DNA of 63,353 nt, taken from IMG/VR virus record IMGVR_UViG_3300012324_000010; one strand, written 5' to 3'. Positions 1-61,660 of this stretch are shown in pieces (the first letter of the stretch is position 1; each line of letters begins with the position of its first letter). This DNA is from a virus (lineage: Duplodnaviria > Heunggongvirae > Uroviricota > Caudoviricetes). The translations under genes were made by a program, and so were the position numbers. The notes below the pieces were generated by a model. It was not told the DNA's origin. It did not search any database and worked only from the letters and a program-made list of their open reading frames with translations.

Positions 1-124
1 ATATCATACCATGAATATTTTTAAATTTCAAATTTTTATCCCTCTTTTTGTGTTATTTTTAGTATTTTTACACTGTGGATACTTAGTGATTTTCAAGATG
101 AAAATATATATGATTTCAAATATG

Positions 125-170
125 AATACACCTTACTCAAACATCTATACATATCTGAGCAAGGTGTATT
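125..170 (-). terminator. Hairpin downstream of ftsK, probable terminator
   Basis: AATACACCTTACTCA ... TGAGCAAGGTGTATT imperfect inverted repeat just past the ftsK stop. Confidence 0.5.
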
Positions 171-193
171 ATTATGTTTACTCATGTCCCTTT

Positions 194-3100
194 TTAGAAC
201 ATTTTCTTAAACTCTTCTAGAGTTAGATTGTCAAATTCTTCATCACTCATAGAGTCAAGTTTATCCTTAATCTTCTTATAAGGATCTTTTCCTTCTTTTC
301 CTGAGTTCAGATCAAGTTTAAGTCTTCTTGCTGCTTCAGTGGTAGCTTTATCCCATCCTCCAAAGACAGAAGAATCAGGCTCAGGCATATCCACATACTC
401 TTCTTGACCACTACCAGGAACAGCGGTTTGAGTAGTCTGCTGTTCTACTCGTGGGGTATTAGCAATAATCTCACTCATGGAGTGCTCATCCAAACCATCC
501 TCTTCAAGAAGGAATCCACGGAAAACATGTTTTTCAGAGCCTTCTAGAAGCATTCCCTCACCTTTAAGCTCAAGATCTTCTAGTCCAGGTTCATCAATAA
601 TGACTTTAGAAGCAATCTGATCTTGTGTCTTCAAGCCTAGTCTTCCTGACTGCTGTTTGATGATGGTAGGAATGCTCTCCTTTGTAGGATACTGAGTTGA
701 AATAAGCATATGGATTCCCGCACTTCTGGACTCGCGAGCTAATTTAACTGCATAATAAAGGATTTCTTTTTGCAATTCCTTAGTCTCTGGATCACTGGCA
801 CCAGCGAACAGCATGGCCGCCTCGTCGATAATTATGAAAATATAAGGCTGTATCAAAGGATTAGGTGATCCATCTGGCATAGGACCTTGCTCAATGCCAA
901 TTCTTCTTGCTACAGCTAGCTTGTCAATGCTCTCAGAATCAGCAGGAGCATATCCATCACGTTGTGCAAACCTGAAGATACCATTGCGTCTCTTCATTTC
1001 TTCTGCTGCTTCTCTAAAGAGATCTCTAACATTAGTAAAGAAATCTTCTGAAGGAGTCCATGAATCAACATACCTAGTTACAGAATCTAATCCTTCAAAG
1101 TTTTGATAACCAATCTTCGGGTCAATGATCCAAATCTGAAGATCCTCAGGACCATTATTAGCAATCAGTTGGCAAATCATAGAGTAAATCAATACTGACT
1201 TACCAGAACCTGAAGAACCTGCTAGAACCAAGTGTGGCATATCTTTATTGAAGTCATGGGTAGCAAGAGAACCATTAGATTTCACACCTGGTGACCATGC
1301 AATCTTTGTCACTCCAGGTTCTCTTCCTGTAATGAGCTTGTCTTTATATTCAGAAAATAAGAACACTTTTTCTAGAGGGTGTGTAGGAGACGCTACAGCA
1401 GTAAACTGTGATACAGATCCATTGTTTTTCTTAATGTAGTTTGAGATTTCCCTTTTCTCTTTCCTGCTCATTTTCTTTTCATCTGTAATACCTTGATGCA
1501 CTTCCAGGAAGTTATTACCAGAAGTGGTTTTTAGACCTTCTGCTGCAGCTTTGCGAATAGTATTCATGGAAATACCAGCTGGAATATCAAAGACAATCTG
1601 ATTAGATGTTCCCATGACATCTTTGCTTAGCATGACAGAAGGAGATTTTCCTTCAGGGGATACCACTTTGTTCATAGCAAAAGAGTACTCCCAGTCCACA
1701 GAAAGGAGTTCTTTCTTATACCAAGAAGCTTTAATACCCCGTGGGAAGATGACTTCTGGGTTATTAGGAGATCCATTTCCTACAAAGATATCTATTACTG
1801 TTCTTCCATTGTGATCTACCCTAGATTTTGCTCTTACCCATGCTACACCTAAAGCATTTCTGATTTTGCTGATCTTGGAAGTAAAATCAGAGTCAGTAAC
1901 ACCTTCTGGAGCTACTACTGATACCCTCATGATTTGAATAGGAGAATCTTCTGCAGTCATCATAGAGTATGAATGCATGATGCATCTATTGATTCCTTTG
2001 ATGGATGCTAGCGGTTCTACAATATTTGCTCTAATAGCAATATTTTTCTGCTCTTCTGTTATGTCCCTTTCTACAAGAAGTTCACTTACAGAAATATATT
2101 CATCTGACCACCAGACTCTAAATCCTTCAGCAGATACAGTACCTTCAATGGATTCTCCTTGATTATTTCTTCGTGGAATGGGGGTGATAACTACCATTTC
2201 TTGATTGGCAATAGATGGACTGATGAGATCTGCATCTCCTGCATAGTCTGTAAATCGTCCGTTCATAGGATAAGAGAACGTTGCAGCCCATACATGTGGT
2301 TCTGGTTCAGGATATCCTTCTGGAGGTCCTCCTGGTTTTCCAGGTTGTCCAGGTACTGGAACTTCCATTTCAAAATAAGGTATGAGTTTATTTTTAAATT
2401 CCCAAATGTCATTCCATTTGTCTCGCGCTTGAATCTGTTTGTCAAACTCTTCCCTGTATACCTTGGTAAGGTTTCTAAACATGCCATAAACAAAAAGAGA
2501 AACAGTAAGAACAGCTATTCCAATGAAGATATAAGTCTTTACTGCATTCAAAGGCTCAATAGCTATCATTGTAGCCATAGATACACCTAATGCTATGCCT
2601 CCACCAATGAGTGCTGTGAAAAATCCTTGTATAGCAGCTTTGACAAAAGATCCGTTTCTAGGTATCTTGTTAAACATCACTGCTGGTGTGTGATCTACAC
2701 CACTAAGAAGAGTTGCTCTATGATACCTGTTAGCAGCAGTAATAACTTGCAAAATCATAAAGTAACATAGAGCAGATACAGCCATAGAAACCCACACAGG
2801 AATCATGAAATCACTATCCCATAAAGGTCTCACATAATCGTGGATAAGATAATCTATACTAGACATACATATTCCAAACCCTATTGCCCAGTATGCTGAT
2901 AATCTAGTAGGAGGGGAAAACATATGTGCTTGAAGATCTTTGTGTGTATCATCTTCTGGAGGTCCAAAACCTAGCATGACTAGAGGGGAAAATATATGAG
3001 ATCTATAATCCTTTTTTAAGATATCCATATATTGAGCTGTTTTCCATGCTCTAGAGTCAAAAGTCATCATTCCGTTAATAGGATCTTGATCTTCTGGACT

Positions 3101-3274
3101 TTTCCAAAAAAGAGGGATGATAAACAAGATAGCAAAAAATGCTAATCCACTGGGAACGTTAAAGCAAATAATGGAAGCTATAAGAAGGATTGTGGTAATA
3201 AAAATAGCAAACTTCTTCCCTGCAGGAAAAGTATCAAACATACTTTTGCTATTTCTTCTAGATGCTGATGGCAT
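194..3274 (-). CDS. Membrane-anchored FtsK/SpoIIIE-family ATPase (single motor domain)
   Basis: N-terminal TM helices; PHLVLAGSSGSGKS Walker A; IIDPK; EEMKRR; IFIIIDEAA Walker B; LARESRSAGIHMLISTQ. No obvious C-terminal gamma wHTH. Confidence 0.9.
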   Translation of the reverse strand: MPSASRRNSKSMFDTFPAGKKFAIFITTILLIASIICFNVPSGLAFFAILFIIPLFWKSPEDQDPINGMMTFDSRAWKTAQYMDILKKDYRSHIFSPLVMLGFGPPEDDTHKDLQAHMFSPPTRLSAYWAIGFGICMSSIDYLIHDYVRPLWDSDFMIPVWVSMAVSALCYFMILQVITAANRYHRATLLSGVDHTPAVMFNKIPRNGSFVKAAIQGFFTALIGGGIALGVSMATMIAIEPLNAVKTYIFIGIAVLTVSLFVYGMFRNLTKVYREEFDKQIQARDKWNDIWEFKNKLIPYFEMEVPVPGQPGKPGGPPEGYPEPEPHVWAATFSYPMNGRFTDYAGDADLISPSIANQEMVVITPIPRRNNQGESIEGTVSAEGFRVWWSDEYISVSELLVERDITEEQKNIAIRANIVEPLASIKGINRCIMHSYSMMTAEDSPIQIMRVSVVAPEGVTDSDFTSKISKIRNALGVAWVRAKSRVDHNGRTVIDIFVGNGSPNNPEVIFPRGIKASWYKKELLSVDWEYSFAMNKVVSPEGKSPSVMLSKDVMGTSNQIVFDIPAGISMNTIRKAAAEGLKTTSGNNFLEVHQGITDEKKMSRKEKREISNYIKKNNGSVSQFTAVASPTHPLEKVFLFSEYKDKLITGREPGVTKIAWSPGVKSNGSLATHDFNKDMPHLVLAGSSGSGKSVLIYSMICQLIANNGPEDLQIWIIDPKIGYQNFEGLDSVTRYVDSWTPSEDFFTNVRDLFREAAEEMKRRNGIFRFAQRDGYAPADSESIDKLAVARRIGIEQGPMPDGSPNPLIQPYIFIIIDEAAMLFAGASDPETKELQKEILYYAVKLARESRSAGIHMLISTQYPTKESIPTIIKQQSGRLGLKTQDQIASKVIIDEPGLEDLELKGEGMLLEGSEKHVFRGFLLEEDGLDEHSMSEIIANTPRVEQQTTQTAVPGSGQEEYVDMPEPDSSVFGGWDKATTEAARRLKLDLNSGKEGKDPYKKIKDKLDSMSDEEFDNLTLEEFKKMF
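509..607 (-). repeat. Dispersed 99-bp repeat, copy 1 (in ftsK)
   Basis: 88/99 identical, ungapped, to 16749-16847 by manual alignment. Confidence 0.9.
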
Positions 3275-3381
3275 AAAAATCTACCTTTACTTTGTGTGTT
3301 AATGGCATAGTTTTTTAATGATTATCATAACAATAGCAGCTTTATCTTGTTGTGGTAGTTTATGTCCCTTTTAATGGTTTG

Positions 3382-3423: not shown

Positions 3424-3436
3424 ACCAATTCATTTT

Positions 3437-3802
3437 TTATCTCCAGAAAAGAAGCTTGTTAAGCAAATTGCTAGAAGGTGGAGTGTTGCGCTCTTGTTGC
3501 AAAGCAATCTGCTTTTTCTTTTCTTCAGTAACCACATTCACCCTATGAGCAGAAGATATAGTTTTATTGAGCCAAGAAAGATAATCATAAATATCACCTA
3601 GATTTTTACTAGATAGATAAGACATCTTTTCATCTACTCTGCGGCGAAATGACATCCATTGATCCCATTGGGAGGAAGTAACATAATCTTTATGATAATC
3701 ATTTTCTTCACAAACAATCTCCCAATTGGTAATGATATCTTGACATTGCTGATCTAGTGGCAGTTCATCATTGACATCAATAAGTTCTCTATACTGATAC
3801 AT
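3437..3802 (-). CDS. Hypothetical protein
   Basis: 121 aa ORF overlapping the stop of the upstream gene, followed by a terminator. Confidence 0.7.
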   Translation of the reverse strand: MYQYRELIDVNDELPLDQQCQDIITNWEIVCEENDYHKDYVTSSQWDQWMSFRRRVDEKMSYLSSKNLGDIYDYLSWLNKTISSAHRVNVVTEEKKKQIALQQERNTPPSSNLLNKLLFWR

Positions 3803-5033
3803 TGTCTTTCTCCATACAATAGTGTGCTACATTGATAATATCTTCATCTTGAGGTTTGTGATTATGATATCCCCTTAGCTCTATAATCTTACCATCTTTA
3901 ACATGAAGAACATATTGCCTTTCATCATCTTGAAGAGCATAAAGTTCCATAGAACCTTCTTCTATACCCTTTTGATACACCTCTCCACCTACACAGATTC
4001 CAAGGGTATCTCCTAATCCTGCAAGATCAATTGAAGAACGAAGAGCATAAATAGCATACTTGTGATAGGTATCATCAGGTTCTCTATTAAAGTCATAAAT
4101 AACTCCAGAAGACTTCTCCAATGTCTCCTTGAAGCGGGCTTCTCTATGTGTAGCAACGATAGCATCCATGTCTCGTGATACTCTATCGCATCTTAGTTTG
4201 ATTCTTTCCATGTCTCCATTTGCTTTAATGGTGGGAACATCTGGATTATCTGAGATTTCTACCAAAGAACACATGACATCAAGAGCCTTGTTTATGCCAT
4301 AGTTGTCACACCAATGAAGAAAACGTTTCAAGCTAAGATTAATACTTTTATCTCTAAATGCAAAAGGAATATAATCACTAGAACATGGTGGAAGATGAGA
4401 GATGTAATCTCCAAGCTGAGAGATATATTCAATAGGTTCATCTGAGTCTAAAAAAGCATGAGATAAGTTCTTTAGAGTATATACATCCAGCCGAGGAAAA
4501 GAAGAAATATACCCACCAATAAGCCGGGAAACCAACTCTTTATAGTTGCGTGAAATATATGCATCATAATGTATCTCACCTGTATAGAAACCATCAGTGG
4601 CACTATCTACATCGTTTTCCCATAGGTAAGGCGCACAAGCATGAAAGACAATACATACTGCTTGAAGAAGATCATCACTTATATCCTTCTCATGTGACTC
4701 TTCATCTCCAGGTAAGGATTCATAAATGGGTATTTCCCCATAGTTTCTTATCCGTACATACTTTTCTACTTTTCTTCCTTCTTCAGCAGGATCAGGCACT
4801 CTTAAAGACTGATAAGCTTCTTTGGCAGTAGAAGTTTGAAGATCAGTATAGTTGGTATTCATCCATGGCATAGACTCTACAATGAATTTAGAAAGTTTAA
4901 TGATACTTTCTTCTTCCATGGCATGCATAAACTCTCTAGCGCGCAGGTTGTTATGACAGATGAGCCTGGAGCCATCTGTGTAAAATTCAAATCCACCAAT
5001 AGTATAATGTTTCATGACCCTATGATACAACAC
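3789..5033 (-). CDS. PcfJ-like domain protein (ATG start possibly 5015)
   Basis: C-terminal LRSSIDLAGLGDTLGICVGG..Y and IIELRGYHN resemble the PcfJ motifs EGxxMxHCVgxY and QxRGxxN. Confidence 0.6.
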   Translation of the reverse strand: MLYHRVMKHYTIGGFEFYTDGSRLICHNNLRAREFMHAMEEESIIKLSKFIVESMPWMNTNYTDLQTSTAKEAYQSLRVPDPAEEGRKVEKYVRIRNYGEIPIYESLPGDEESHEKDISDDLLQAVCIVFHACAPYLWENDVDSATDGFYTGEIHYDAYISRNYKELVSRLIGGYISSFPRLDVYTLKNLSHAFLDSDEPIEYISQLGDYISHLPPCSSDYIPFAFRDKSINLSLKRFLHWCDNYGINKALDVMCSLVEISDNPDVPTIKANGDMERIKLRCDRVSRDMDAIVATHREARFKETLEKSSGVIYDFNREPDDTYHKYAIYALRSSIDLAGLGDTLGICVGGEVYQKGIEEGSMELYALQDDERQYVLHVKDGKIIELRGYHNHKPQDEDIINVAHYCMEKDNVSV

Positions 5034-5291
5034 CTAGTTATGGGATTCAAGAGGAAAAACTTTTCCTCCAAACACTCCTGTGGATACATTGTTTTTTATA
5101 GCATAATCTAAGCATTCTTCTTTTACAGGACATACAGAACATGCTTCTAGAATGTCTTTATCATTGAAAGTTTTTTCCATCCCAATACATGATGCTTCAT
5201 CCATCCACCCAGGTGTATGTGATAAAAATGTATGAAGAACATCAATATATGCTTCATCTACCACGCTATCGTTATGAGGAAGTCTAGGCAT
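5034..5291 (-). CDS. WhiB-family Fe-S transcriptional regulator
   Basis: WMDEASC ... CSVCPVKEECLDYA ... GVFGG: four Cys plus a G[V/I]WGG-like turn. Confidence 0.9.
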   Translation of the reverse strand: MPRLPHNDSVVDEAYIDVLHTFLSHTPGWMDEASCIGMEKTFNDKDILEACSVCPVKEECLDYAIKNNVSTGVFGGKVFPLESHN

Positions 5292-5996: not shown

Positions 5997-6875
5997 CTAA
6001 ATAAGCTGTTGTCTGTCATCTGGATGAAAATCAAACTGTGGTTCCAGCCTAGCATAAATCTCATCAAAGTTTGTATCAGGTTCTGAGTCCATGATCTTAG
6101 ATACAGTCTCCCAATACCCCTGGGGTGCTTGATTATGGAATTTAACTACCTCTTTAAGATTGTATCCCTGCATAAGAAGATCACTGGCTTCTTCATCTAC
6201 ATCCATATATTCTTTACCCACTGTAGAAGAGACTTTTTCTCCCACATCATAAAAATCTGTCTTTTTAGGTGTGGTGTATTTATTTTTGCTCTTATTATAA
6301 TCCACAGCAGTAAATTGGTTTTCTTTTGCTACTGCAGGATAGAGAGAAGAAGACCCTGTTGTTTTAATCCTAGAAGAAAGTTCATAAATATCAGGTGTAA
6401 AAGGAAGTTCTTCTTTAATGTCTTTAAGAGACTCTTTGTGTGACATAATGCATACAACAAGTGCTGCAGGATCAGCATCACCCAATCCTCCAGTAATATC
6501 ATCAATGATGGGAATCATTTCCTGTGCTTTATTTTCAGCTTGCATGTGTGTCAAAGTAGGATAAGAATGCTTAATAAACCTCTGTGCGCATTCCTTTACA
6601 GCTAAATCTTTCATGACATACTCTACCCTATCTAGAGGATCTACATCCAATCCAATAGAAGGTAGCACAGAAGCAAGGTTGAGATAATATTGCATATGGT
6701 AAAAGTCTGCACCGTTGTCTTCAGCTAATAAAACAACCTCATCAAACTTGGAAGTATCCTTATCATTGATACCCATAGCAGACATCCACTCTTTGAGTGC
6801 ATCAGAACACTTTCTATCTTTGCGGGTATCATCTCTAGCTACCACAGTAGCCCTTTGAGGTTTATACCGTGCCAT
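5997..6875 (-). CDS. Hypothetical protein between dnaE and the DnaC-like gene
   Basis: 292 aa ORF with AAGGAG RBS, directly after dnaE. Confidence 0.75.
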   Translation of the reverse strand: MARYKPQRATVVARDDTRKDRKCSDALKEWMSAMGINDKDTSKFDEVVLLAEDNGADFYHMQYYLNLASVLPSIGLDVDPLDRVEYVMKDLAVKECAQRFIKHSYPTLTHMQAENKAQEMIPIIDDITGGLGDADPAALVVCIMSHKESLKDIKEELPFTPDIYELSSRIKTTGSSSLYPAVAKENQFTAVDYNKSKNKYTTPKKTDFYDVGEKVSSTVGKEYMDVDEEASDLLMQGYNLKEVVKFHNQAPQGYWETVSKIMDSEPDTNFDEIYARLEPQFDFHPDDRQQLI

Positions 6876-6877: not shown

Positions 6878-9800
6878 TTACTCCTTGTCATCATTTAGTC
6901 TCTTTTTGACATCTACCTTGATTATCTTATTGCATAGTGCCTTAGGAGTAAAGTCATCACCATCTCCTGTGGAATCATTTTCAATAGCCCCTTCTACCTT
7001 GATAAATGCACCTTCATGTGATTCATCAATGGGTTCTTTAAACCTTAATGCTGGAACAGAAGCTCTATCAGTTTCAATCATAAAGGAACAATAAGGGTTT
7101 CCTTTCCCTGATACTCTATTGGAAATATTGTAGATATATCCACAGAATTGAGCATTTCTAGATGCTTGTGTGTATTCATCAATAGGAGGGTAGATTGTGA
7201 ACATATTTTGGAAATATGGTTCATCTCGCAAAGCTTCAAAAGGATGTGTTCCAATAAGGACACCCATGATATCTCTTTCCCATTGAGATCTAACAGTGTC
7301 ATCTACTTCAATATCTTCACCATCAACAGTGATGATAATAGGATCTTCAGATACATCAACTTCATGTCCCTTGTGAGAAGAGGAGATCATGGAACCAAAA
7401 AGACCTTGCTTTAGATCCATAACAGACTTATGAGATTTGGAAGCATCAATGATTTCTTCTGCTTTAGATATCACGGCTGCACGATTAGCACCCATGGAGT
7501 CAAAGGCTCCTGCCTTGGCCATATTAATAATCATAGATTTAGACAACTTGCATCTAGCAGCAAAATCTACCACTGATTTAAAAGGACCATTAGCATTTCT
7601 TTCATCAATGATTTCTTCTGCTTTCTTTGCTCCCATCCCTTTAATAATGTGCAAAGGAAGATAAATAGAATCACTTGTGGTAACAGATCTCATTTCAGAA
7701 CGTTGCACATCAGGAGCATAAACCCCTATTCCTTCTCGTTTAATCCATGAGACTGTTTCAAACACATCATCAGGATTGCTCATTCTTTGATCAATCACAG
7801 CACCTGAGAATTGAGCAGGATAATGTGCTTTAAGCCATGCTGTGCGATAAGTAATCATTCCATAGGCAACAGAGTGACTGCGATTAAAAGCATATGCACC
7901 AAAGGGTTCAATAACATCCCATAGTTCATTTCCTAGTTTTCCACCATAGCGCTTATTCACCTCTGGAATGAACTTCTTTTTGTGTTTTTCCATCTTTTGA
8001 GGATCTTTTTTAGCCATTGCTTTTCGCAAATCATCTGCTTCTCCACCAGTATATCCAGCCATGAGACGAGCAATATGCATGATGTCCTCTTGATAGATGA
8101 TCAGGTTATAGTTCTCACCAAGAACTTCTTCCATATCATGGTGCATGGCAACTGATTCATGCTCTCCTAGTCTGCGTTCACAATATTCATCGTGAGTTCC
8201 CATTCCCATTGGTCCTGGACGGTATAGCGCTAGGATAGCGGGAATGTGTTTAAACTCACTAGGTTGCATATGTCTTAGAAGTGATTGAATACCAGAAGAG
8301 TTGTGAGTTACAATACCATTAGCAATGAAGTTATTTACAGGATAATCCATCATAAGATCATAGGTTTTTTCTTTCCCATTATCTTCAATGGATTCCACTT
8401 TTTCCCATGTGGTCCCCACAGGAGAAATAATATGATCATGAGATGTGGTTTCATGAACATAAGTTTCTACCATTTGTCCATAAGACATAATGGTTACAAT
8501 CTTGTCCCCATTGTCATTTCTTGCTTGTGCTTTTTCTTCTGCTTTTACCCCTGTGCTATAAGCTTCATCAGGGTAGAAACATACATATCTATCCCACTTA
8601 TCATTGATAACATGAGGATAATAAGTCAAGCCGTCAACATTGACTGGGTTTTTACCTTGGTATCTTTCCCATCCAGGGTTAAGGGAAAGATAAAGATCAA
8701 TAATATCTTCTAGCCCTCTTACCCCAGAAGCATAGGTAAAGTCATCTTTGACAGTGAGGATATAGTCATCATCAGTCAAGTCTCCTGCCTTTACCCAACC
8801 CTGTTTAGTCCATATGTGATGTTCTGGAGTACAAGTAATACTGTGGTGAGAAGTAGAGACCTTAATGGTATCTTTAACACCAGAAAATACTACCTTATCA
8901 ACACAGTGGTTGCCAATGTATCCTCTGCCAAAAAAGAGACTTCGTGCTTCTTTGGTACTAAGATCAGAGTTGCGCAAAGAATACATCATGTCAATCCTCT
9001 GCCCATCTACAATGGTATCTCCAGTAACACAACCTAGCTGGAATACACCTCCACCATTTCCATGAGAGAGCATGTTATATACTTCTTCATCATCATAAGC
9101 AAGATCAGAAGAGTCAACTTCTTCCCCTAGATCTAGGAGAATATTTCTTTCAGTGTCTTCACATTCATCCAAGTTGATAAGACCCAAAAGATCAAATTTA
9201 ACTCCACCAATAGACTCAGTATCAGTTCCATCAAATTGACATACTGGAAGTTGGGTTTTATCAGATTTTCTCAAAGGGAAGTTGTCATCTAGAGGAGTAT
9301 CTGTAATAAGAATTCCTGAAGCATGAACACCATAGCTCATGATTCTTCCAATAAATTTAGCAGCAGTTTTAACAATAGAGTTATAGTGTGGAGTAGAAAT
9401 AATCTTTTTCTCTATTTCTTTAGGAGCTTTTCCACGTTTTGCAAAATCTACTAGTGATTCTCCATAGTCTTCACACCAGGTAGCAATCTCATCTCTAAAC
9501 TTATTAGCATCACCAGGAGAAAGTCCATAGACTTTAGCTGCTCTTAGAAGAGAATCTCGCATACCCATTTTAGAATAGTTAGATAGGTGTGCTACATGTC
9601 CTTTTCCATATTCTTCTTCTACTAACTCTAGTGCTTTTTGTCTTTTTGATTTAGGAATGTCCACATCAATATCAGGCATGGAGATTCTATCAGGGTTCAA
9701 AAAACGCTCAAAAAGAAGTCCATGCTCTAAAGGATCCACATCAACAATGCCTAGGCAGTAGACCACAACAGATCCAGGAGCAGAATTGTGAATAGCACCA

Positions 9801-11377: not shown

Positions 11378-11417
11378 TGAATTCTCTTTCTGGTTGTTGT
11401 GTATATGCTTCCTGTGC

Positions 11418-12881: not shown

Positions 12882-12888
12882 TTCTAAT

Positions 12889-37114: not shown

Positions 37115-37130
37115 GTATATAGGGTATGTA

Positions 37131-41630: not shown

Positions 41631-41885
41631 CTAGGAAAAAGGAATCACCCTTCCCTCTTCATCACGAGGTTTGCTATTGCACCAAGAATCAAGATCTTCT
41701 TTTAGATCATCAAAACTACTCCATGTCTTTTCTGTATCCACATCATGGTATTCACGATCAGGTTGGGTAATATCAGGAGAAATAGAACACTTTCCATTGT
41801 CATTAAGATAGAAAGTCATTATCCCACTTTTAGTTCCATCTACAGTATTTACTGTTATTCTATTTTCATAGTTTAAGCATTGCAT
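41631..41885 (-). CDS. Small hypothetical protein
   Basis: 84 aa, overlaps the upstream gene end. Confidence 0.55.
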   Translation of the reverse strand: MQCLNYENRITVNTVDGTKSGIMTFYLNDNGKCSISPDITQPDREYHDVDTEKTWSSFDDLKEDLDSWCNSKPRDEEGRVIPFS

Positions 41886-42700: not shown

Positions 42701-42709
42701 TATATCTTT

Positions 42710-44786: not shown

Positions 44787-44848
44787 AGATTACACGCTCA
44801 TTTCCTTTGTCTTGTTGTGCAAATAACTACTCATAGAATATAGTTGAT

Positions 44849-45685: not shown

Positions 45686-45709
45686 ACTTTATACCCCTTA
45701 TGTAACCTT

Positions 45710-46699: not shown

Positions 46700-46759
46700 A
46701 TGTGTGTCCCCTTTGTACAATGCTATTTTCCCAACTGGCATAGTATACCAGCTACAGCA

Positions 46760-47461
46760 TTACTCCTGTGGAGGAAGTTGTCCTCCTTCTACTGAAGTGG
46801 AATCTTCTTTTTTGATACTTGTGTCAGGAACTTTTTCTCCAGGTTTATTCATCACATCAACATAAGAATCTGTATGGAGGGTCATCTTCCCCATGAATCC
46901 TTGAGACATATCATTATACTTGCGAATATCATTCATCATGGAGTTAGCAGTATCAGTAAACTCTTTACACATACCCTTGTAATCAATGGTATCTACTTCC
47001 AGTGAATAAGTAGAAATATCACATGCTGCATAATAAGGAGCAATCTTCACTGCTTCTTTCTCCCTTTCTCCATGCTTATCAAAAGTAGGAGAGCTAGAAT
47101 CAAAATGTCCAATAACATTGGATAAGATGCGAGTGGATTTAACAGACATGTCTTCTTTGCCAATCTTTTCTTCCATTTCATCTGCTTTGTCTCGCAAATC
47201 TTGAGGAAGTTGTGGATCAGAAAAACTATCATGAACACTAACTAAAGATGTATTAAACTCGTCAATGGAGTTGTCAGTTTCTTTCTTTGATTGTTCAACG
47301 GCAGCAAAAATGATTGCATAAGCAATGATAATGCATGCAATGACAAATATTGTCAATATTGTTTTCCAATGACTCTTATTTCTACCTGATGATACAGGAA
47401 TAGAGTTATAAGAATACTGATCTTCTGTTGAACCAAAAGGGTTATATTTTACTTCCTTCAC
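46760..47461 (-). CDS. Single-TM hypothetical protein
   Basis: 233 aa, one TM, helical ectodomain. Confidence 0.7.
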   Translation of the reverse strand: MKEVKYNPFGSTEDQYSYNSIPVSSGRNKSHWKTILTIFVIACIIIAYAIIFAAVEQSKKETDNSIDEFNTSLVSVHDSFSDPQLPQDLRDKADEMEEKIGKEDMSVKSTRILSNVIGHFDSSSPTFDKHGEREKEAVKIAPYYAACDISTYSLEVDTIDYKGMCKEFTDTANSMMNDIRKYNDMSQGFMGKMTLHTDSYVDVMNKPGEKVPDTSIKKEDSTSVEGGQLPPQE

Positions 47462-47467
47462 TTTTTA

Positions 47468-48991: not shown

Positions 48992-49048
48992 GATATATTG
49001 TCCCTTTTCTTGTATTCTTTAACCTATTAATCATTATCACCATACAGC

Positions 49049-51864: not shown

Positions 51865-54054
51865 TTAAACAAATAACTGTGCTATCTTATCTAAAAATGA
51901 CATCTTTACTTTTCCTCCAGTGTTTACCTGAGGTCCTTTCACAGAAGCTCCTTGAGACTGAATGGAGTCTTCTTTTATTCTCTGTGGAGAATAGTGTTGG
52001 GAAGGAACCTGGGAATCATCATAACCTCCAGTTACAATTGGTTCAGTTTTCACTGGTGAAGACTTTTCTGAAGGCTGTGTATCTTGGGTATCAAAAGTTT
52101 CTTCAGGTGTGGTGTCAGGAGAAGAATCTACAGGTTCTTCTACAGGTTCTTCTGTATCTACAGGTTCTTCTACAGGAGTCACATCCTGTGTTGGGGTGGA
52201 TGTCTCTGGTGGCAAGGAAGGTTGAGAAATGCTTTCTTCTGGTTGTGATTCATCTTTAACAGTCACTTCAAAAGAGACTGTTTTTGTAGATTTGTCAGGG
52301 TATTCCACTTCCACATCAAAAGACTTCTTATCTCCATCATGAGCATCATGAGGAGGTGTCACTGTAGCCTTTCCAGAATCTTCTTCTATATCAATCTTCC
52401 ATCCTTGAAGATTATCACTATTTTTAAGTTTAAATTGTGTTCCTTTAGGAATGTCTTCATCTCCAGATTGCTCTACCTCCACTGGAACACCAGGTTTGGT
52501 TTCAGCATCAGGGTAAGAAGGTTTGTGCTCATCTGATTCTGAAGTGAATTTTCCATGGAGTTTAAGATCAAAGTCTTTAGCATTGGAATAAGAAACATTC
52601 CACACATACTCTGTAGTTTTTTCTTCAGGGGTAAATTCCACTTCTACATCTGCAGTCTCTCCCGGTGCAATAGAGGTATCAGCTGTAAATGTCTTTCCAT
52701 CTGGTCCAGTGATGTTAGGATTTGACAAACGAGTATTTCCCTCATTTTTCAAAGTGATAATACCTTTTGTTTTCTTCCCACTTTCCATCATTGCAGGGGT
52801 ATCTTTAGTGGTTTCTTTACCATTGATAGTGATTACACCACTAGGTTTTCTTTCTGCTTTAATGGCATTTCCTTCAGCATCAAGAAGACCTTGTACTTTA
52901 ACAGTAGACTGTCCTCCATTTTTAGTATTCTTAGTAGGAGAAACTTCTACTCTGCTTGCTCCATAGTCAGCAGGATCTCCAATATCAACATAGCCAATAT
53001 TGTCAACAAAAACTATTGCAGTAACATCTTCTGGAACATTTGAGACCTCAATGATAAACCCTTTACCATCTTTTTTAACATTGGTCTTTATCTGAGATGC
53101 AAACTTCTTCAACTCTTCTTCACTAAAGGGTTCTTCACCAAAATCTTTTGCAGACTGTGCTCTAGTGGTTACTTTCCATGTGCTAGGATCTGATACATTC
53201 CATGGTGTAAGAGATTCATTGGGAGTAAGTTTTACATATCCTTTTCCACCCTCCATGTTTCGAGGGAAGTTGTGCTGTATCCTAAGAGAGATTCCACCTT
53301 TGTCATTGTCAATGGAAGGAGCAGCCATCCAGTGTCTAAAATATCTCACTGGATATTCAGAAATAGCCTGCTTCCAGGTAAGAGTTGCATTTCCATCTTT
53401 AGTTACAGGGGTGTAACTTGGTGTTTTCTTGTCTTCGGAATATGTCCTGAAATAATATTTAATAGGTTGATTGTTATGAACCTTGGTTTGAGACTCTTCT
53501 TTAGGGTACATACCATCTCCTGAGCCATAAAAAGACTTAGGTGCATAAAAATGAACAGGAACAGAGATCTTACCAGTTACATCATTGACATTATCCAAGC
53601 CAGTAATTCTGATTCCAGAATAAGCTATATTTCCATCTTCCCGCACTTGAGATATTGATTTCACGCGCAAAGTAGGAACCCCATTGTATTTGATCTCATT
53701 ATCTATTTGACCAAAAGATAATCCTCCACCTGAAAGATCTTTTTCATTGGCACCAATGAAAAAATCAACGAATCCACCAGGTTTAAAATCATCTAGAGTA
53801 GCTTCTAGTTTTACTGTCCAACCATCAGTGATAGAAAATCCATTCTTGATTGCATCATAATGGCCATCTAGACGAGAGCCATCTGGTTTATAGATTCCTT
53901 GATAATCAAGAGCAGAAGCTGGAACCAGATCTTTTTGTGTCCCTGATTCCATGGGAGTAGATGGTGTAGTGTCTTCAGCTGCAAAAGCAACATTAGGAGA
54001 CATTGTTGCCAATGCAGATGTTGCAAGAATAGCTGCTATATATTTATTCTTCAT
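51865..54054 (-). CDS. Secreted surface protein with Ig-like and Rib/YPDG-like domains
   Basis: Signal peptide (AFA-AE); ITLKNEGNT..SIAPGET Ig-like; PSY ... VTPP ... VEYPDKST Rib-like; P/E/T stalk; VNTGG tail. Confidence 0.75.
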   Translation of the reverse strand: MKNKYIAAILATSALATMSPNVAFAAEDTTPSTPMESGTQKDLVPASALDYQGIYKPDGSRLDGHYDAIKNGFSITDGWTVKLEATLDDFKPGGFVDFFIGANEKDLSGGGLSFGQIDNEIKYNGVPTLRVKSISQVREDGNIAYSGIRITGLDNVNDVTGKISVPVHFYAPKSFYGSGDGMYPKEESQTKVHNNQPIKYYFRTYSEDKKTPSYTPVTKDGNATLTWKQAISEYPVRYFRHWMAAPSIDNDKGGISLRIQHNFPRNMEGGKGYVKLTPNESLTPWNVSDPSTWKVTTRAQSAKDFGEEPFSEEELKKFASQIKTNVKKDGKGFIIEVSNVPEDVTAIVFVDNIGYVDIGDPADYGASRVEVSPTKNTKNGGQSTVKVQGLLDAEGNAIKAERKPSGVITINGKETTKDTPAMMESGKKTKGIITLKNEGNTRLSNPNITGPDGKTFTADTSIAPGETADVEVEFTPEEKTTEYVWNVSYSNAKDFDLKLHGKFTSESDEHKPSYPDAETKPGVPVEVEQSGDEDIPKGTQFKLKNSDNLQGWKIDIEEDSGKATVTPPHDAHDGDKKSFDVEVEYPDKSTKTVSFEVTVKDESQPEESISQPSLPPETSTPTQDVTPVEEPVDTEEPVEEPVDSSPDTTPEETFDTQDTQPSEKSSPVKTEPIVTGGYDDSQVPSQHYSPQRIKEDSIQSQGASVKGPQVNTGGKVKMSFLDKIAQLFV

Positions 54055-54281
54055 AGTTTTTTGCAATCTTTCTTGTTAAAAAAATCAAACATGTATCTTT
54101 TTCAGTATAAAGAAAACAACACATAGTTTGCACAGGTCAAAACAAGAAAATATTAATACTACAAACAGAAAAGATTCAACCATCATAAACTACCTTCTTA
54201 TTAAGAAACAAGCAAGTAGATTATGAACTATTGCTACTCTATAGCAAACATTTTTCTAGAAGATAAACCAAGAAATATCTA

Positions 54282-55880: not shown

Positions 55881-58103
55881 CTACTCACTCTTCCAAGAAG
55901 AAGGCTTTCCTCTTTGAGTTACTTTAGGGCGTGGAGTGGGTTGAGCTTTTTTAGAATCTACTAGGAAAGACTTTCCTGCAGAAAACTCTACTACCTGCTT
56001 TTCACCCTTGCGCAAAGGATGAACCATCACACCAAATCCACCTTTACCTTTTACTGGAATATCAGATACTTCTACAACTTTCCATCCATCATCACTGATG
56101 GTAAGGAGACTATCTTCATCACTAGCAGGAGTGGCACCAATGAAGAAATCATCATCTTTAAACTTCATTCCAGCCACACCTTGTCCGGCAATACCTTGGC
56201 CATTAATCTTTGATGGGTCAAGTTTCAAGACTTTACCAGAGGAAGAAAGCATAAGAAGATAACTTCCTTTACCAATCACACCAGCATAAGTGATTTCATC
56301 CACATTAGGGGCAAAGGGAACAGGATCTGAACTCTTTTTTGGAAGACCTTTACCATTGAATAGTTTCAAAGATCCATCCTTAAAGACTGCAAAGGCAGTA
56401 CCTTGAGAAATATCAGTGCCTGTATTAGACAAGAATCCAGAAGAATCAATACCCCAGTGTCCATCAGGCAAAGAAGCAGCAGAAGATGGAGAAGTTCTCT
56501 TCTTCTTTTCAATCTTCTTTCCACTAATAGTGGTAAAGCGAGTAGAAGTCCATTCATCTTTAGAAAAGATATCAATCATATCCTGGGTTTGCTTAAGGAT
56601 GATGTTCTTCTGCTTGACTTTAGAGCCTAAAATAGCTTTATTATCTTTAATAGTTTTAGCTAGCTTCTTAATCTTCTTTTCTAGTTCAACCTCATCTTGT
56701 TTAGTCAAACGCCGCAAAGTCAAAGAAAGAACATAATCAGCCTGTACTTCATCAATGTCAAAGTTATCCATCAAAGACTTCTTAGCCTTAGCAGAGTTAT
56801 CAGAGTTTCTAATAATAGAAACAGCCTTATCAATATCCAGCAAAATCTTAGACATACCCTCTAGAAGATGCTTAGACTTTTCATCTTTATCAATAGCCTG
56901 CGCTGTAATATTCTTTAGCACCTCATAGCGAGAATAAATGAAATCATTGATGACATCTTTCATGCTCATCATGGATAGAACCTTGTCATGATTGAGCACA
57001 TTCATCTTAATAGGGAAAGAAATCTCCAACCCTACACCCAAGCCATAAAGATCTTCTAGAGTATCTTGAGGAGAGAAACCTCTTTTTACACCAATTTCAA
57101 TCTTTGTACCTAGTTTTTTGGAAGATAGCTCTTTGACACCTTTGCATGATGAAATCTTTCCATCAGTAATAGCCTTGTGAATCTTATCAATAACAGAAGT
57201 AGCTGAAACACCATAAGGCATTTCTGTGATAATAATATCACCATTTTCAAACTCAGCTTTAGCCCTTAGCTTGATATTAGCTTCGCCAGTCTCATAATAC
57301 TTCTTAATGAGATCATTTCCATGGGAATCTTTAGAGAGAACAATACCTCCTGTCTTCCAATCAGGACCAGGCATAATCTCCATCATCTCTTCAGTAGAAA
57401 GGGAAGGATCTTTAATCATAGCTTCTACCAACTGCATGACCTCTACAGGGTTATGCTGTGGAATCTTATAGGTGTATCCTACAGAAATTCCATCACCACC
57501 ATTGACAATAAGGTTAGGGAATCTGGTAGGAAGGAACTTAGGCTCTACAGTATCATGATCTTCACTAGTAATCATGGGAACTGCACCATGGACTAGATCT
57601 TCTACCATTGACCAGCCATAAACTGACAAACGCTCATAGGTATAACGCATAGCAGCAGCATCATCACCATAGGTAAGACCAAAGTTACCAGAACCCTCAA
57701 TAAGTCTTACCCTAGACCACAAACGTGCCATATTCACAGAAGCTTGATAGATAGCAGCATCACCGTGTGGGTGAAGCTCAGCCATGGTATCAGCAGTAAG
57801 CTTAGAAGATTTCACAAAAGACTTATCAGGTCGCAAGTTATCTAGGAAACCCTGATACAAAAGCCTACGCTGAACAGGCAAAAGACCATCTAGACAAGAA
57901 GCAAAAGATCTGTTGGAAACAACTTCACCAGAATATTCAAGGAAGTTTTGCATCATTTGATCTTTAGCAGAAATCACTTTGACTGCTTCATCAATAAAGT
58001 TTCCTTTGGTTGCTTTTTTACCCTGTGCAGAAATGCGTGATTTAACCAAATTGGAAACAAGATCTACAGATTGCTGATTCCATTCAGTAAGATTATTTGT
58101 CAT
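55881..58103 (-). CDS. Type IIA topoisomerase subunit A (GyrA/ParC-like, short CTD)
   Basis: DGLLPVQRR, HPHGD, GNFG, AAAMRYT (catalytic Tyr), PQHN, GPDW.TGG; no canonical GyrA-box seen. Confidence 0.93.
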   Translation of the reverse strand: MTNNLTEWNQQSVDLVSNLVKSRISAQGKKATKGNFIDEAVKVISAKDQMMQNFLEYSGEVVSNRSFASCLDGLLPVQRRLLYQGFLDNLRPDKSFVKSSKLTADTMAELHPHGDAAIYQASVNMARLWSRVRLIEGSGNFGLTYGDDAAAMRYTYERLSVYGWSMVEDLVHGAVPMITSEDHDTVEPKFLPTRFPNLIVNGGDGISVGYTYKIPQHNPVEVMQLVEAMIKDPSLSTEEMMEIMPGPDWKTGGIVLSKDSHGNDLIKKYYETGEANIKLRAKAEFENGDIIITEMPYGVSATSVIDKIHKAITDGKISSCKGVKELSSKKLGTKIEIGVKRGFSPQDTLEDLYGLGVGLEISFPIKMNVLNHDKVLSMMSMKDVINDFIYSRYEVLKNITAQAIDKDEKSKHLLEGMSKILLDIDKAVSIIRNSDNSAKAKKSLMDNFDIDEVQADYVLSLTLRRLTKQDEVELEKKIKKLAKTIKDNKAILGSKVKQKNIILKQTQDMIDIFSKDEWTSTRFTTISGKKIEKKKRTSPSSAASLPDGHWGIDSSGFLSNTGTDISQGTAFAVFKDGSLKLFNGKGLPKKSSDPVPFAPNVDEITYAGVIGKGSYLLMLSSSGKVLKLDPSKINGQGIAGQGVAGMKFKDDDFFIGATPASDEDSLLTISDDGWKVVEVSDIPVKGKGGFGVMVHPLRKGEKQVVEFSAGKSFLVDSKKAQPTPRPKVTQRGKPSSWKSE

Positions 58104-60183
58104 AGTTATTCTCCTTTGAAATTCCATGGTGCTCCATCAAGGTTTTGCGTGGGGAAGAATCATCATCCATCAAAGCTTCCATAACTTCCCTGATGATTTC
58201 AACCTGCTTTTTAATATTGATCTCTTCTTCCTCTTTGGCTTGAGCATGTTCTACAGCTTCTTTAGCATCCTCAATAGATACTTGATGAATAACCCTTGTA
58301 TGAGGATTCATCACAGTATTTTCAAAGTCATCAGAGTTCATCTGTCCTAGACCTTTAAAACGCTCTACTGCATGCTCAGGAACAACTTTCTTTCCAAACA
58401 CTTCCTTTTTCTTCTCATCTCTTTCCTCAGGGGAATAAGCATACTCAATCTTGTTCTTACCCCTAATAGCATAAAGTGGAGACTTTGCTACATAGAGATA
58501 CCCTTCTGCAAGCAAGGCTGGCATCATCTTGTAAAAAATGGTAATAATCAGGTTTTCAATGTGCTTTCCATCAGCATCAGCATCAGCAGCAATAATGATC
58601 TTGTCATAGTTAGACTTCTTTGGATCACATTCTGTTCTAATACCTGCACCAATAGAATCAATGATTCCTGATACCTCAGCATTGGCACCGATCTTTTTAT
58701 CTACAGCCTTGATAACATTAAGGATCTTTCCCTTGATAGGGAACACTGCTTGAAAATCAGAATCACGTGCTGACTTAATAGTTCCACCTGCAGATTCACC
58801 CTCACAGATATAAAGTTCAGCACCCATACCTGGTTCTGAATACCTACAATCTGTAAGCTTTGCAGGAACAGTAACCTGCCTTCCAAAACGTTTTTCATCT
58901 TGCTTGCTTCTAGAACGCTTCTTAGCTGCTTCCATAGACTTCTTTTCACGAGATAGAGCCAAAGCAGCCTTGCCCCAGGCAACAAGAGCCTTATTGTTCT
59001 TCCTGGAAGACACCCAAGACTTCATCTCTTTATCTACAGCCTTCTTTAGCTGTCTTCCCAGTGGCTGTGAGGATACAGCAGCTTTCTCCTGTCCTTTCAT
59101 GGCAATATCAGCACCACGAACAGAAACTACCATATCCATAGTAGAGATGAAATCCTTATCCTCAAAGTTATCACCCTTCTTCTTGCCAATTCCACGCAAA
59201 CTAGGAACTTTAGAAGATAGTGCTGCAGCAATAGCATTAGCTGCATTATTGACGTGAGTTCCACCATCTACATTGTAGATACCGTTGACAAACCCATAAG
59301 TCTTTCCCTGTCCTAGTGGATTGATGCGAGCTGTAACCTCCCAAGAAAAAGCACGAGTTACACCCTTCCTAATATTAAATTCGCCTTCACCAGAAATGGT
59401 AAAAGTCTCATCATCTTCTACACCAGTAATATCTTTCAAAAGAGGAACAGTACCATTGTCTTTTTCACCTACAGTAGTAACAGTTTTCCCATCGCGGTGA
59501 ATATTTAATGTGGATCCAGGGGTGAGATGACCATGGTAGCGAATAAGATCCAAAACACTATCTAGATGAAATTCAAAGCCCTCTAGAAGCTCTTTATCAA
59601 AAGACCACCGCACAGAAGTACCATTAGGTTGGGTGGTTTTCTTTCCCTCTTTTTCTAGCTTCCTAGGTGAGGAATCCTCAACAAACTCTGCTAGAGGATC
59701 AAAGTCTTTACCCTTGAACTTTCCTGGCTTTCCCTGTTTGAACTGTTGAGTATAAGACTTCTTATCTCTTGTAGAAGTAACATCAAAACGAGTAGAGACA
59801 GCATTGGCTCCAGCACCACCCTCGCCGTTAGTACCAGCATTTGCTACCACAGCATCAGAACCATGGTGGAAGTTTCTACCAGCACCAGAAGTACCTAGGG
59901 TGAGAATAATACCGTTGGTGTCATACTTTTCAGACCAGTCAAAGGGAACACCACGCCCATTGTCTACAATTTCAAAGTCATTATCCCCATGAATATAAAC
60001 ATTTACCTCATTGGCAAAACCACCTGATACCTCATCAAAAGCGTTATCAGCAATCTCCCTAAATGCTGTATCCATGGGTTCATCACCCAAAGCACGAGAA
60101 GGGCGCAATCTAATATGTTCTAGTCCTTCTGGCTTATCAATATCATCAGTGGTATAACCTTGTGATTTCTTCTTCGTTGTCAT
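58093..60183 (-). CDS. Type IIA topoisomerase subunit B (GyrB/ParE-like)
   Basis: GLEHIRLRP, EIADNAFDE, DNGRGVP, GGTH, KLTDC, EGESA, PIKGKILN, DADADG, RFKGLG. Confidence 0.93.
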   Translation of the reverse strand: MTTKKKSQGYTTDDIDKPEGLEHIRLRPSRALGDEPMDTAFREIADNAFDEVSGGFANEVNVYIHGDNDFEIVDNGRGVPFDWSEKYDTNGIILTLGTSGAGRNFHHGSDAVVANAGTNGEGGAGANAVSTRFDVTSTRDKKSYTQQFKQGKPGKFKGKDFDPLAEFVEDSSPRKLEKEGKKTTQPNGTSVRWSFDKELLEGFEFHLDSVLDLIRYHGHLTPGSTLNIHRDGKTVTTVGEKDNGTVPLLKDITGVEDDETFTISGEGEFNIRKGVTRAFSWEVTARINPLGQGKTYGFVNGIYNVDGGTHVNNAANAIAAALSSKVPSLRGIGKKKGDNFEDKDFISTMDMVVSVRGADIAMKGQEKAAVSSQPLGRQLKKAVDKEMKSWVSSRKNNKALVAWGKAALALSREKKSMEAAKKRSRSKQDEKRFGRQVTVPAKLTDCRYSEPGMGAELYICEGESAGGTIKSARDSDFQAVFPIKGKILNVIKAVDKKIGANAEVSGIIDSIGAGIRTECDPKKSNYDKIIIAADADADGKHIENLIITIFYKMMPALLAEGYLYVAKSPLYAIRGKNKIEYAYSPEERDEKKKEVFGKKVVPEHAVERFKGLGQMNSDDFENTVMNPHTRVIHQVSIEDAKEAVEHAQAKEEEEINIKKQVEIIREVMEALMDDDSSPRKTLMEHHGISKENNYDK

Positions 60184-60487
60184 TGACACCCTCTTCTTAT
60201 ATGAGAATAGTACAGCTATATGTATTTCACAATAGAATATCTTTTTATAATCTGCAAAGATAACATTTCTTTTAAAGAATAGCACATTGCTAAATAGAAT
60301 CAATAGCATGCATTATATACATATCAAAAATGCATACAATACAAAGAGGTATAATCTCATTTTCACCCTTATAGTAAAAAGTTTTTCTCCTGTCAATAGT
60401 TTCTATAAAAATATACCTCTACCAGGTGTTTTACAGTATTTTCCACTGGATAAAAACTAATATTATACACCAATATTTATTATATAG

Positions 60488-60583: not shown

Positions 60584-60865
60584 ATGGCCAGAAGCAATCT
60601 CTTTGAAGTAGTAGTAGGAATGGCAGCAGTAGACTACATCTTCAACAAAACAGGAAAAGGTACTGGAGGTGGTCCTCTTGCTGGAATGCGAGATATCATC
60701 TCTGATACTGCACGAGAAAATCATGTATCCAAGCGCACCAAAGCACGCATGCGCATGGATAATGGTATCAAGGTAGGAAATACCACACCTACCATCATTG
60801 AATCTGCACAACGTTCTGTAAGTGATGACTTTGATGATATCCCAGGGTACAACCCTTACCGTTAA
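60584..60865 (+). CDS. Small hypothetical protein in its own transcription unit
   Basis: AGAAAGGAGG RBS, promoter, downstream hairpin at 60886-60925. Confidence 0.8.
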   Translation: MARSNLFEVVVGMAAVDYIFNKTGKGTGGGPLAGMRDIISDTARENHVSKRTKARMRMDNGIKVGNTTPTIIESAQRSVSDDFDDIPGYNPYR

Positions 60866-60992
60866 GTGGTAGGTATCCTATATGCAAAAGACCCCTTCTT
60901 TGTACAACATGAGAAGGGGTATTTTACTATCTAGCTGTTTTTATGATTACTCCCATCATTTAACAAGTGGGTTGTACTATTAAAGGAATTGG

Positions 60993-61031
60993 AAAAAGCC
61001 ACACCTATAAAAATGAGGTGTGGCTTTAAAA
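60993..61031. terminator. Terminator hairpin
   Basis: AAAGCCACACCT ... AGGTGTGGCTTT perfect stem. Confidence 0.75.
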
Positions 61032-61043
61032 AGTTTCTATCTC

Positions 61044-61283
61044 TTAGAAGCCCAAGTGAGAAATAACGTGAGTAGCATCAGAAGCAAAGAGACCAAGAGC
61101 ATTGGTGAGATCAGTGTACCATGCACCAAAGAAGTTAACGGCATCAGTGTGGAAACTGTTAACAGCATTGGTGAGCTGATCCTGAGCACCCTGAATAGCA
61201 TAGTCAGCCTGCTCCTGAGCACGCTGAGCCTGAGCAGCAAAACGATCCTGGTAAGTGTTAACAACTTCGTTGAAGTGAGACAT
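61044..61283 (-). CDS. 79 aa helical amphipathic protein
   Basis: AGAAAGG RBS, own terminator, biased codon usage. Confidence 0.75.
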   Translation of the reverse strand: MSHFNEVVNTYQDRFAAQAQRAQEQADYAIQGAQDQLTNAVNSFHTDAVNFFGAWYTDLTNALGLFASDATHVISHLGF

Positions 61284-61660
61284 ATTAAAGCCTTTCTTTT
61301 AAAAATATATGTGTGCAAAGTTCCCACCTCTTTGGTGGAATGTTTATAACATTAGCATACAAAAGTAAAATAGACAAAAATGGGATTATATAAAATCGTT
61401 AGTGCTGTTTATAGTATATTTTTAAGAAACAGTTACTTTTTAGTTTCTAGGAGAAACTACTTGTTTTTCTTTGTTGGTTTGGTTTTAAGGAACAAGAGGA
61501 GACATAGATGATATAGAGGATAAAAAGTAAGGGTGCATTGTGTCCCTTTGAAAGGGAGTAGCCTTATCCTCACATGCTTTGGGAGCATTGGACCAAAAAG
61601 AACACATGGTGTATTTTTTGCGTATCCCCTGCATGCGTAGGGAATACGCAATATGCAGAT

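Follow-up and report, generated by a model that had tools for sequence, protein, structure and literature searches.

The 63,353-nucleotide stretch filed in IMG/VR as IMGVR_UViG_3300012324_000010, called here the window at its full length, is best explained as part of an actinobacterial megaplasmid of about 375 kb, probably from Corynebacterium, with its own replication enzymes and a conjugative ancestry, and not as a jumbo phage; we put the probability of this interpretation at roughly three in four. A sequence-only reading had proposed a megaplasmid-like replicon, and this proposal is supported by the size of the element, by its kinship with isolate plasmids of Actinomycetota and by relatives that carry VirB4 and a replisome without a recognised virion module. 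Its long relatives, both filed as viruses, are G308 (IMGVR_UViG_3300014024_000069, 321,819 bp, CheckV 100%, ends linear) and G001 (IMGVR_UViG_3300034069_002177, 202,737 bp, an IMG/VR “provirus”).

A check of the element’s size returns about 375 kb: the exact proteins of the window occur on a 374,554-bp contig, and near-identical ones on contigs of 332-383 kb, among them contigs of 382,744, 382,215, 379,056, 378,967, 374,128, 364,313 and 359,681 bp. Independent assemblies converge on 359-383 kb, and such similar end sizes suggest a complete replicon of about 375-383 kb. The 63-kb window covers about one sixth of the element, and the virion and VirB4 negatives given below for the window apply to that portion. 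The AT-richness stressed by the sequence-only reading holds throughout, GC content being 38% overall and 0.27 at third codon positions, with each of the 31 2-kb bins falling within 0.34-0.41. Coding sequence makes up 92% of the window, 45 of 46 genes lie on the minus strand, the longest gene-free gap is 734 bp, and no tRNA genes were found in the 63 kb.

Window proteins were scanned with Pfam, NCBIfam and PHROGs (PHROGs on 40 open reading frames, ORFs, and the housekeeping survey on 47), and these scans recovered the DnaE, DnaX, DnaC-like, YqaJ, type IIA topoisomerase, FtsK, WhiB and Rib/YPDG genes named beforehand. The ParA-like ATPase also has a match, a weak one, and its Walker A motif is deviant (Table 1). 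In a tree of 14 DnaE rows, assembled without G308 and actinobacterial chromosomal DnaE, the window clusters with G001 and the loci L011 and L012 (100/99), in a clade separate from the DnaEs of three chromosomes, two actinophages and five plasmids. In a FastTree phylogeny of the topoisomerase A subunit, likewise of 14 rows, it joins G308 and a 437-kb Mycobacterium plasmid (support 100), so that both window proteins fall outside the chromosomal rows. The A subunit retains the catalytic R-Y and lacks the GyrA-box in a motif check; four chromosomal GyrA rows and L004 have the box, and G001, G308 and the Mycobacterium plasmid are without it, like the window. For this reason the enzyme is predicted to decatenate and relax DNA rather than supercoil it. 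Topoisomerase matches in G002/L003 and L004 are unrelated and were set aside.

A fragment of the chromosome or a chromid of a low-GC bacterium could likewise hold replication and topoisomerase genes, an LCP protein and surface proteins, but this origin is highly improbable. Family scans show no ribosomal-protein or other housekeeping genes among the 47 window ORFs, as the sequence-only reading had claimed of housekeeping operons, and the window, with no gene-free gap above 734 bp, has no rRNA gene; no translation or core metabolic gene is present in the 63-kb window, and none was recognised in the 203 kb of G001. The similar end points of independent assemblies speak against it as well, as does the position of DnaE and topoisomerase outside the chromosomal rows, among which actinobacterial chromosomal DnaE is not represented.

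The kinship with G308 and G001 is extensive. G308 matches 22 of the 47 window ORFs, largely colinearly, and both relatives share with the window a colinear core of FtsK, DnaC, DnaE, the nuclease, the coupling protein, DnaX, the VirB6-like, ParA-like and TcpC-like proteins, GyrB/A and WhiB. They differ from it in their 51% GC, in CpG ratios of 0.91 and 1.08, in having VirB4 within the cluster and in protein identities of only 23-45%. Near-full-length FtsK homologues occur in G001 (30%) and G308 (35%), the DnaC-like gene is kept near DnaE in G001, L011, L012 and G308, and the 5997..6875 product, encoded beside it, may speculatively be proposed as an initiator. G308 encodes VirB4 (above the AAA_10 cut-off), DnaB, DnaG, a clamp-like protein, SSB and RecA, and G001 carries VirB4, replisome and type IV pilus genes.

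G308 also holds two WhiB genes, a C5 methyltransferase, 19 tRNAs, rIIA/rIIB, an RNA ligase, a polynucleotide kinase and an M23/NlpC hydrolase. The tRNAs, rIIA/rIIB, ligase, kinase and hydrolase would suit a jumbo phage or phage-plasmid whose very divergent virion module lies elsewhere on the 375-kb genome, as would the one-strand gene layout and YqaJ of the window and the storage of its relatives as viruses. Such an origin is nevertheless quite unlikely. PHROGs found no capsid, portal or terminase genes in the window, where the sole virion-category match among 40 ORFs was a “terminase” cross-match on two ATPase domains, that of FtsK (E 3e-7, versus 4e-50 for FtsK) and that of the coupling protein (E 0.002); the earlier statement that virion genes are missing is borne out to this extent. 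No capsid, portal, sheath, tube or tape-measure protein was recognised in 232 of 241 G308 ORFs of at least 130 residues (PHROGs, with nine ORFs already recognised as window-gene homologues set aside and ORFs split at 20-kb borders). The “terminase” matches of G308 are pieces of about 95 residues, probably parts of inteins, that lie within VirB4 and a ClpB-like protein; its “tail” matches are an NlpC/P60 domain, and a single “minor head protein” match spans 84 residues (E 3e-6). In 180 G001 ORFs (Pfam on all, PHROGs on 113) none of these virion proteins was recognised, one tail-chaperone match falling below the cut-off; the proposed check for capsid and terminase has thus brought up no recognisable gene in the window or in either near-complete relative. 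Plasmids carry rIIB as well: 12 plasmid records have a homologue, among them four from Variovorax (801-839 kb) and three from mycobacteria (none was found in seven plasmid records checked), and since rIIA/rIIB occur in G308 together with VirB4, they are no proof of a phage. The window’s nuclease is also without a match among 50,697 phage records.

The link to cultured plasmids runs through the coupling protein, which matches only 10 of 72,556 plasmid records, all from Actinomycetota and 149-608 kb in size. Seven of these matches are annotated as belonging to the type IV secretion system (T4SS) conjugative DNA transfer family, and all ten plasmids are typed non-mobilizable. Five complete isolate plasmids were tested (pACHL01, NC_011879.1; pYJN5-1; an Arthrobacter caoxuetaonis plasmid; Curtobacterium D40; pEDY32-46I). 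All five (375-608 kb) encode DnaE and an adjoining coupling protein and nuclease pair, with the nuclease directly downstream (E 2e-34 to 2e-12), and none has a terminase (PF03237, PF03354). These circular plasmids of Micrococcales and Euzebya, non-mobilizable according to MOB-suite, resemble the window in size class, in the pair, in having their own DnaE and in the lack of terminase; they are unlike it in carrying neither a type IIA topoisomerase nor rIIA/B and in forming separate DnaE and nuclease clades. pACHL01 additionally shares FtsK, through its C-terminal part, and a VirB4-like ATPase; its 40-kb locus has 65% GC, some 385 kb of it show a CpG ratio of 1.01, and it holds type IV and Tad pilus genes. 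The three listed papers that name pACHL01 give it one or two mentions each.

Relaxases of the MOB_C/Replic_Relax kind, of the pAD1 TraX type, combine a winged helix with a restriction-like nuclease. The AlphaFold2 model of the 21975..23312 product (predicted local distance difference test, pLDDT, 81) likewise has a winged helix plus a restriction-enzyme-like domain, and it aligns with BstEII at Z 8.7 and a root-mean-square deviation of 3.4 across 151 residues. D265 and E279 are invariant among 47 homologues and, with K297, form a conserved set of catalytic-type residues. An HUH relaxase (MOB_F/P/Q/V/H) is ruled out by this fold and these residues, and the modelled protein is a candidate relaxase of MOB_C-like type. 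With MOB_C relaxases that work with TcpC-type Gram-positive channels it shares the two-part architecture, D-x13-E and a place beside the coupling protein, and it carries E-L-S where MOB_C proteins have E-x-E. Its homologue in L012 passes the PF13814 (Replic_Relax) cut-off and the window protein does not, this being the only passing member among the six scanned (window, L011, L012, G001, G308, pACHL01). In the nuclease tree the window and its sister L010 are joined next by G308 (87) and then by the G001 group, the isolate plasmids forming a second clade; direct tblastn found nothing in plasmids or in the phage records, and the profile alone reaches the isolate plasmids. Sequence searches of the PDB gave nothing for the coupling protein and only weak winged-helix matches for the nuclease profile.

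The type IV coupling protein expected of a conjugative plasmid is present in the window, with Walker A at 512, Walker B at 833 and membrane segments. Of the two large membrane proteins that follow the conserved core protein and DnaX, the second (32220-35801) has homologues in L012, G308 and L076-L078; neither has a family match (best ESM Atlas value 0.76), and a VirB6-like role is suggested by position and hydrophobicity. One of the two small membrane proteins (35947-36564) is conserved in G308 and L076-L078, and the TcpC-like protein is supported by PF12642 at E 0.0025 in one of five aligned homologues, its profile yielding no useful match in the PDB. The sequence-only reading had named relaxase-like, coupling and mating-pair-like genes; the relaxase-like protein is corrected here to a PD-(D/E)xK nuclease.

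VirB4 has left its conserved site, having been moved or lost: it sits between the TcpC-like and ParA-like genes in all seven relatives examined. Its absence there leaves self-transfer unproven. Rearrangement of the cluster in the sister L010 makes a move possible, and the odds that VirB4 now lies elsewhere on the replicon are about even. The alternative, in which the same megaplasmid has lost VirB4 and with it autonomous single-stranded DNA transfer, and now depends on vertical inheritance, on mobilisation in trans or on a TraB-like membrane FtsK that moves it in double-stranded form, is tentative and claims a lesser share of the weight given to the megaplasmid as a whole. It draws on the empty site and on the membrane anchors of FtsK, which has a weak plasmid_TraB match far below the cut-off. 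Against it, the reading frames for the coupling protein, the nuclease and the TcpC-like and VirB6-like proteins are all intact, the outer domain of the VirB6-like protein is hypervariable, as for a surface protein in use, and the L010 rearrangement allows for a moved VirB4. As side observations, the VirB4 clusters P0279 and P0285, one of which has an intein, count 160 and 148 members on contigs that reach about 178 kb and represent another abundant branch of the family of elements; a VirB4 near-identical to that of G001 occurs on contigs of 495-805 kb.

On the megaplasmid interpretation, the element would replicate in theta mode with its own DnaE, DnaX, clamp, DnaB, DnaG and SSB, the last four as seen in G308 and not in the window. 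The daughter circles would be unlinked by the topoisomerase lacking the GyrA-box and segregated by the ParA-like ATPase and by FtsK, a putative DNA translocase with a role in segregation or transfer. For transfer, the winged-helix/PD-(D/E)xK protein would nick the origin of transfer (oriT) as MOB_C relaxases do, and the coupling protein encoded next to it would pass the strand on to a channel of Gram-positive type, made of TcpC-like, VirB6-like and VirB4 proteins, while the LCP protein, protease and hydrolases would remodel the envelope.

The host very probably belongs to Actinomycetota. WhiB is an actinobacterial marker, and among 14 control genomes the family was detected in Corynebacterium glutamicum alone. 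Among 50,697 phage records, the phage-derived gene at 62957-63244 has a single match, Corynebacterium phage Darwin (40%); small viral contigs of 55-56% GC match it at 84-90% protein and 86% DNA identity, and several of the long contigs are represented in its cluster. The sharing of this 56%-GC gene suggests a common corynebacterial host, and Corynebacterium is the probable genus. In another branch, one VirB4 comes from a metagenome-assembled genome that bears the label Cutibacterium granulosum. In GTDB, a scan with the nuclease alignment gave no relative among 17 candidates, and one with the phage-derived gene returned just two matches, 11-13 residues long and attributable to chance. The class around one of these (301 genomes) was set aside as uninformative: WhiB was absent from all five genomes checked, so that the class is probably not actinobacterial, and its two weak matches contained stops.

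About three quarters of the expected CG dinucleotides have been lost from the element. The CpG odds ratio of the window is 0.24 (0.21 in bases 1-60,000 and 0.66 in the last 3.4 kb), compared with 0.71 in L010, 0.91 in G308, 1.08 in G001 and 1.01 over about 385 kb of pACHL01; the first three of these relatives all have 51% GC, versus 38% in the window. The loss affects all codon positions (0.59, 0.07, 0.16), leaves a single TCG among 1,793 serine codons and, in bases 1-60000, is strongest in TCGA and CCGA/TCGG contexts (0.04-0.06). TpG (1.46) and CpA (1.65) are in excess where changes can be silent, and GpC is not depleted overall. In all four strain comparisons, which are non-independent and unpolarised, C/T polymorphism is about twice as frequent at the C of a CpG as at other C, which fits methylation with deamination. 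The likely cause of the loss is either long-standing methylation of CpG followed by deamination or selection that removes restriction sites containing CG; no methyltransferase is encoded in the window. Together with the TpG/CpA excess, the depletion may explain the low GC, and CpG loss would account for part of the drop from the approximately 51% of relatives to 38%. A literature search that did not extend to supplements found no description of the CpG loss or of the family; the supplements to the skin catalogue may be relevant to whether it was described earlier. PMC12282955 and bioRxiv 2025.09.30.679422 offer general background only.

Several observations weigh against a conjugative megaplasmid and temper its probability. 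The relaxase-like, coupling and mating-pair-like proteins of the window have no Pfam or NCBIfam conjugation matches of their own, so their identity rests on homologues. Structural matches of the nuclease are middling (Z 7.6-8.9, a MarR-type fold being best at 8.9), Foldseek with its model gave no matches at E 0.001, and the top ESM Atlas cluster of the TcpC-like protein is 71% labelled virus. VirB4 was not found in the window in a six-frame search (best E 0.19), the empty site is spanned by contigs from runs X3 and X4, so that other strains also lack it there, and none of the VirB4/PilB homologues among the matches listed lies on the 332-383-kb contigs, which is weak evidence from a word-based search. 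The isolate plasmids are distant, with 22-29% identity on the coupling protein and DnaE in a separate clade, and none of the five has a type IIA topoisomerase. Both trees have few rows and a compositional bias flagged for the window, no cultured host genome in the GTDB scans holds the element, and IMG/VR classes its relatives as viruses. Virion genes are possible on the other approximately 311 kb of the source contig, very divergent capsids escaping PHROGs.

Should the megaplasmid interpretation be correct, a recurrent element of about 375 kb treated as a jumbo phage would be a giant plasmid, which changes the reading of virus catalogues; in its host it would be a resident gene pool of surface and envelope-remodelling proteins rather than a predator. 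Elements known from metagenomes only would then be tied to cultured plasmids such as pACHL01, in which the proposed relaxase and the divergent transfer system are testable and whose kind is at present typed non-mobilizable. CpG ratios from 0.24 to the 0.71-1.08 of relatives would offer a graded natural series for studying what methylation or restriction avoidance does to the base composition of a replicon, separately from its host. A far-reaching extension is rather doubtful: giant plasmids of Actinobacteria, on contigs of some 160-800 kb, would form a widespread family not yet described, with a complete replisome of their own and a relaxase of restriction-enzyme type that MOB typing misses, and virus catalogues would list them as jumbo phages. 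In the human-associated corynebacterial branch of this family, vertebrate-like CpG erosion by the element’s own CpG methylation would have driven GC to 38% inside a high-GC host, and another transfer route would have replaced VirB4.

Saheb Kashaf et al. reportedly list twenty “novel jumbo phages” in the Skin Microbial Genome Collection. The size class of the element fits them, and the sequence may already be in print as a skin jumbo phage. Inocle elements, uncultivated and on average 245-368 kb in size with 24-32% GC, resemble this element in being large and low in GC and in carrying DNA polymerase III, gyrase and insertion sequence (IS) elements (Kiguchi et al., PMC12340149). Neither WhiB nor Actinobacteria is mentioned in that paper. 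Replisome-bearing megaplasmids are thus an already known kind, exemplified by Inocle and by the annotated pACHL01. The host of Inocle is Streptococcus, and WhiB in the window argues for a different one.

Table 1. Annotated features of the window, with strand and supporting evidence
Coordinates	Strand	Feature	Evidence or remark
194..3274	-	FtsK/SpoIIIE ATPase	PF01580 84.6 bits; about 5 N-terminal membrane segments; Walker motifs
3789..5033	-	PcfJ-like protein	PF14284 above cut-off
5034..5291	-	WhiB-family regulator	PF02467 36 bits
5292..5969	-	DnaC/IstB-like AAA+ ATPase, likely helicase loader	phrog_50 E 9e-22
5997..6875	-	Conserved protein upstream of DnaC-like gene	C-terminal homologues at same place in G001, L011, L012, G308
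6878..11437	-	DNA polymerase III alpha (DnaE), two intein domains	Pfam/NCBIfam
11418..13064	-	YqaJ/RecE-like exonuclease	PF09588
12880..14274	+	IS200/IS605-type insertion, tnpB 13002-14213	PF07282, PF01385; tnpB-only
14352..14912	-	Membrane-anchored HNH nuclease	Family scan, membrane segment
18815..21052	-	Conserved protein, long low-complexity linker	Homologues in L010, G001, L011, L012, G308
21975..23312	-	Candidate relaxase, winged helix + PD-(D/E)xK nuclease	Replic_Relax/MOB_C-like
23366..26455	-	Type IV coupling protein-like ATPase (TraG/VirD4-like)	1029 residues; plasmid homologues
26492..27715	-	Conserved core protein of family	Homologues in L010, G001, L012, G308, L072, weakly pACHL01
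27809..29122	-	DnaX clamp-loader subunit	PF13177, TIGR02397
29248..35801	-	Two large membrane proteins, VirB6-like position	Membrane segments
35947..37517	-	Two small two-helix membrane proteins	Putative VirB3-like and pilin-like positions
37765..40116	-	ParA/MinD-like ATPase, long acidic N-terminal part	CbiA E 0.002, PHROG ParA E 2e-5
40129..41529	-	TcpC/VirB8-like channel protein	ESM Atlas TcpC cluster 0.90
41873..49000	-	Envelope module: GmrSD_C-type secreted nuclease, LCP glycopolymer transferase, trypsin-like protease, membrane proteins	
51865..54066	-	Surface protein, YPDG/long-Rib domain (RibLong)	NF038186 above cut-off, PF18957
55881..58127	-	Type IIA topoisomerase GyrA/ParC-type subunit	Family scans
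58093..60309	-	Type IIA topoisomerase GyrB/ParE-type subunit	Family scans
62957..63244	-	Small gene of phage origin, 56% GC	Corynebacterium phage Darwin the sole match among 50,697 phage records

The element is present in runs X3 and X4 (air metagenome); run X5, with 3 of 30 bins covered, was not counted. Four close loci are 93-97% identical in DNA, and strains differ in the tnpB insertion, in a third DnaE intein of about 1.1 kb and in the hypervariable outer domain. The insertion is polymorphic, its 1395 nt being skipped in runs X1, X2 and X3 and matched by a gap in L008, and the best plasmid matches of tnpB (49%) lie on Bifidobacterium plasmids of 169-198 kb. The third intein site (7877-7883, near 7880) is empty in the window and holds an insert of about 1.1 kb in run X2; X1 shows matching loose ends whose translation is that of an intein terminus. 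In the second large membrane protein, the outer part (about 33700-35400) is scarcely covered, if at all, by runs X1-X3 at 88% likeness and, with its Asn/Ser/Gly repeats, is a candidate recipient-recognition or exclusion determinant.

Among the remaining genes, the LCP and protease genes hold the same position in G308, L076 and L078, and G308 also encodes a Rib-repeat protein. The YPDG protein of the window has no match in phages, and L045 has no DNA match among cultured phages. The C-terminal domain of the 18815..21052 product appears to resemble the vWA/DUF2201 type, with a weak match to a DUF2201 protein of G001. In G001 (L013-L023), type I-E Cas genes occur without Cas1/2 among the called ORFs, together with NAD salvage, RtcB and poly(A) polymerase-like genes.

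The direct and inverted repeats shown for the window are low-complexity coding sequence or chance, with no CRISPR array and no iterons among them. Two adjacent ORFs at 54506-55812 look paralogous by eye and have no family match above the cut-off. A 79-residue ORF of 47% GC at 61044-61283, followed by a terminator-like hairpin, is likely the real gene at that place, and the HD-domain gene at 61661-62137 appears broken near its start (114 residues versus 158 in cluster members). The 9-base motif AAAGGGACA occurs at 15 sites (193 to 61549), all on the minus strand and none on the plus strand, mostly intergenic and in some cases at ribosome-binding distance. A 110-nt piece of ftsK (498-607) is duplicated at 16738-16847 with 85% identity, within an acidic gene of 608 residues.

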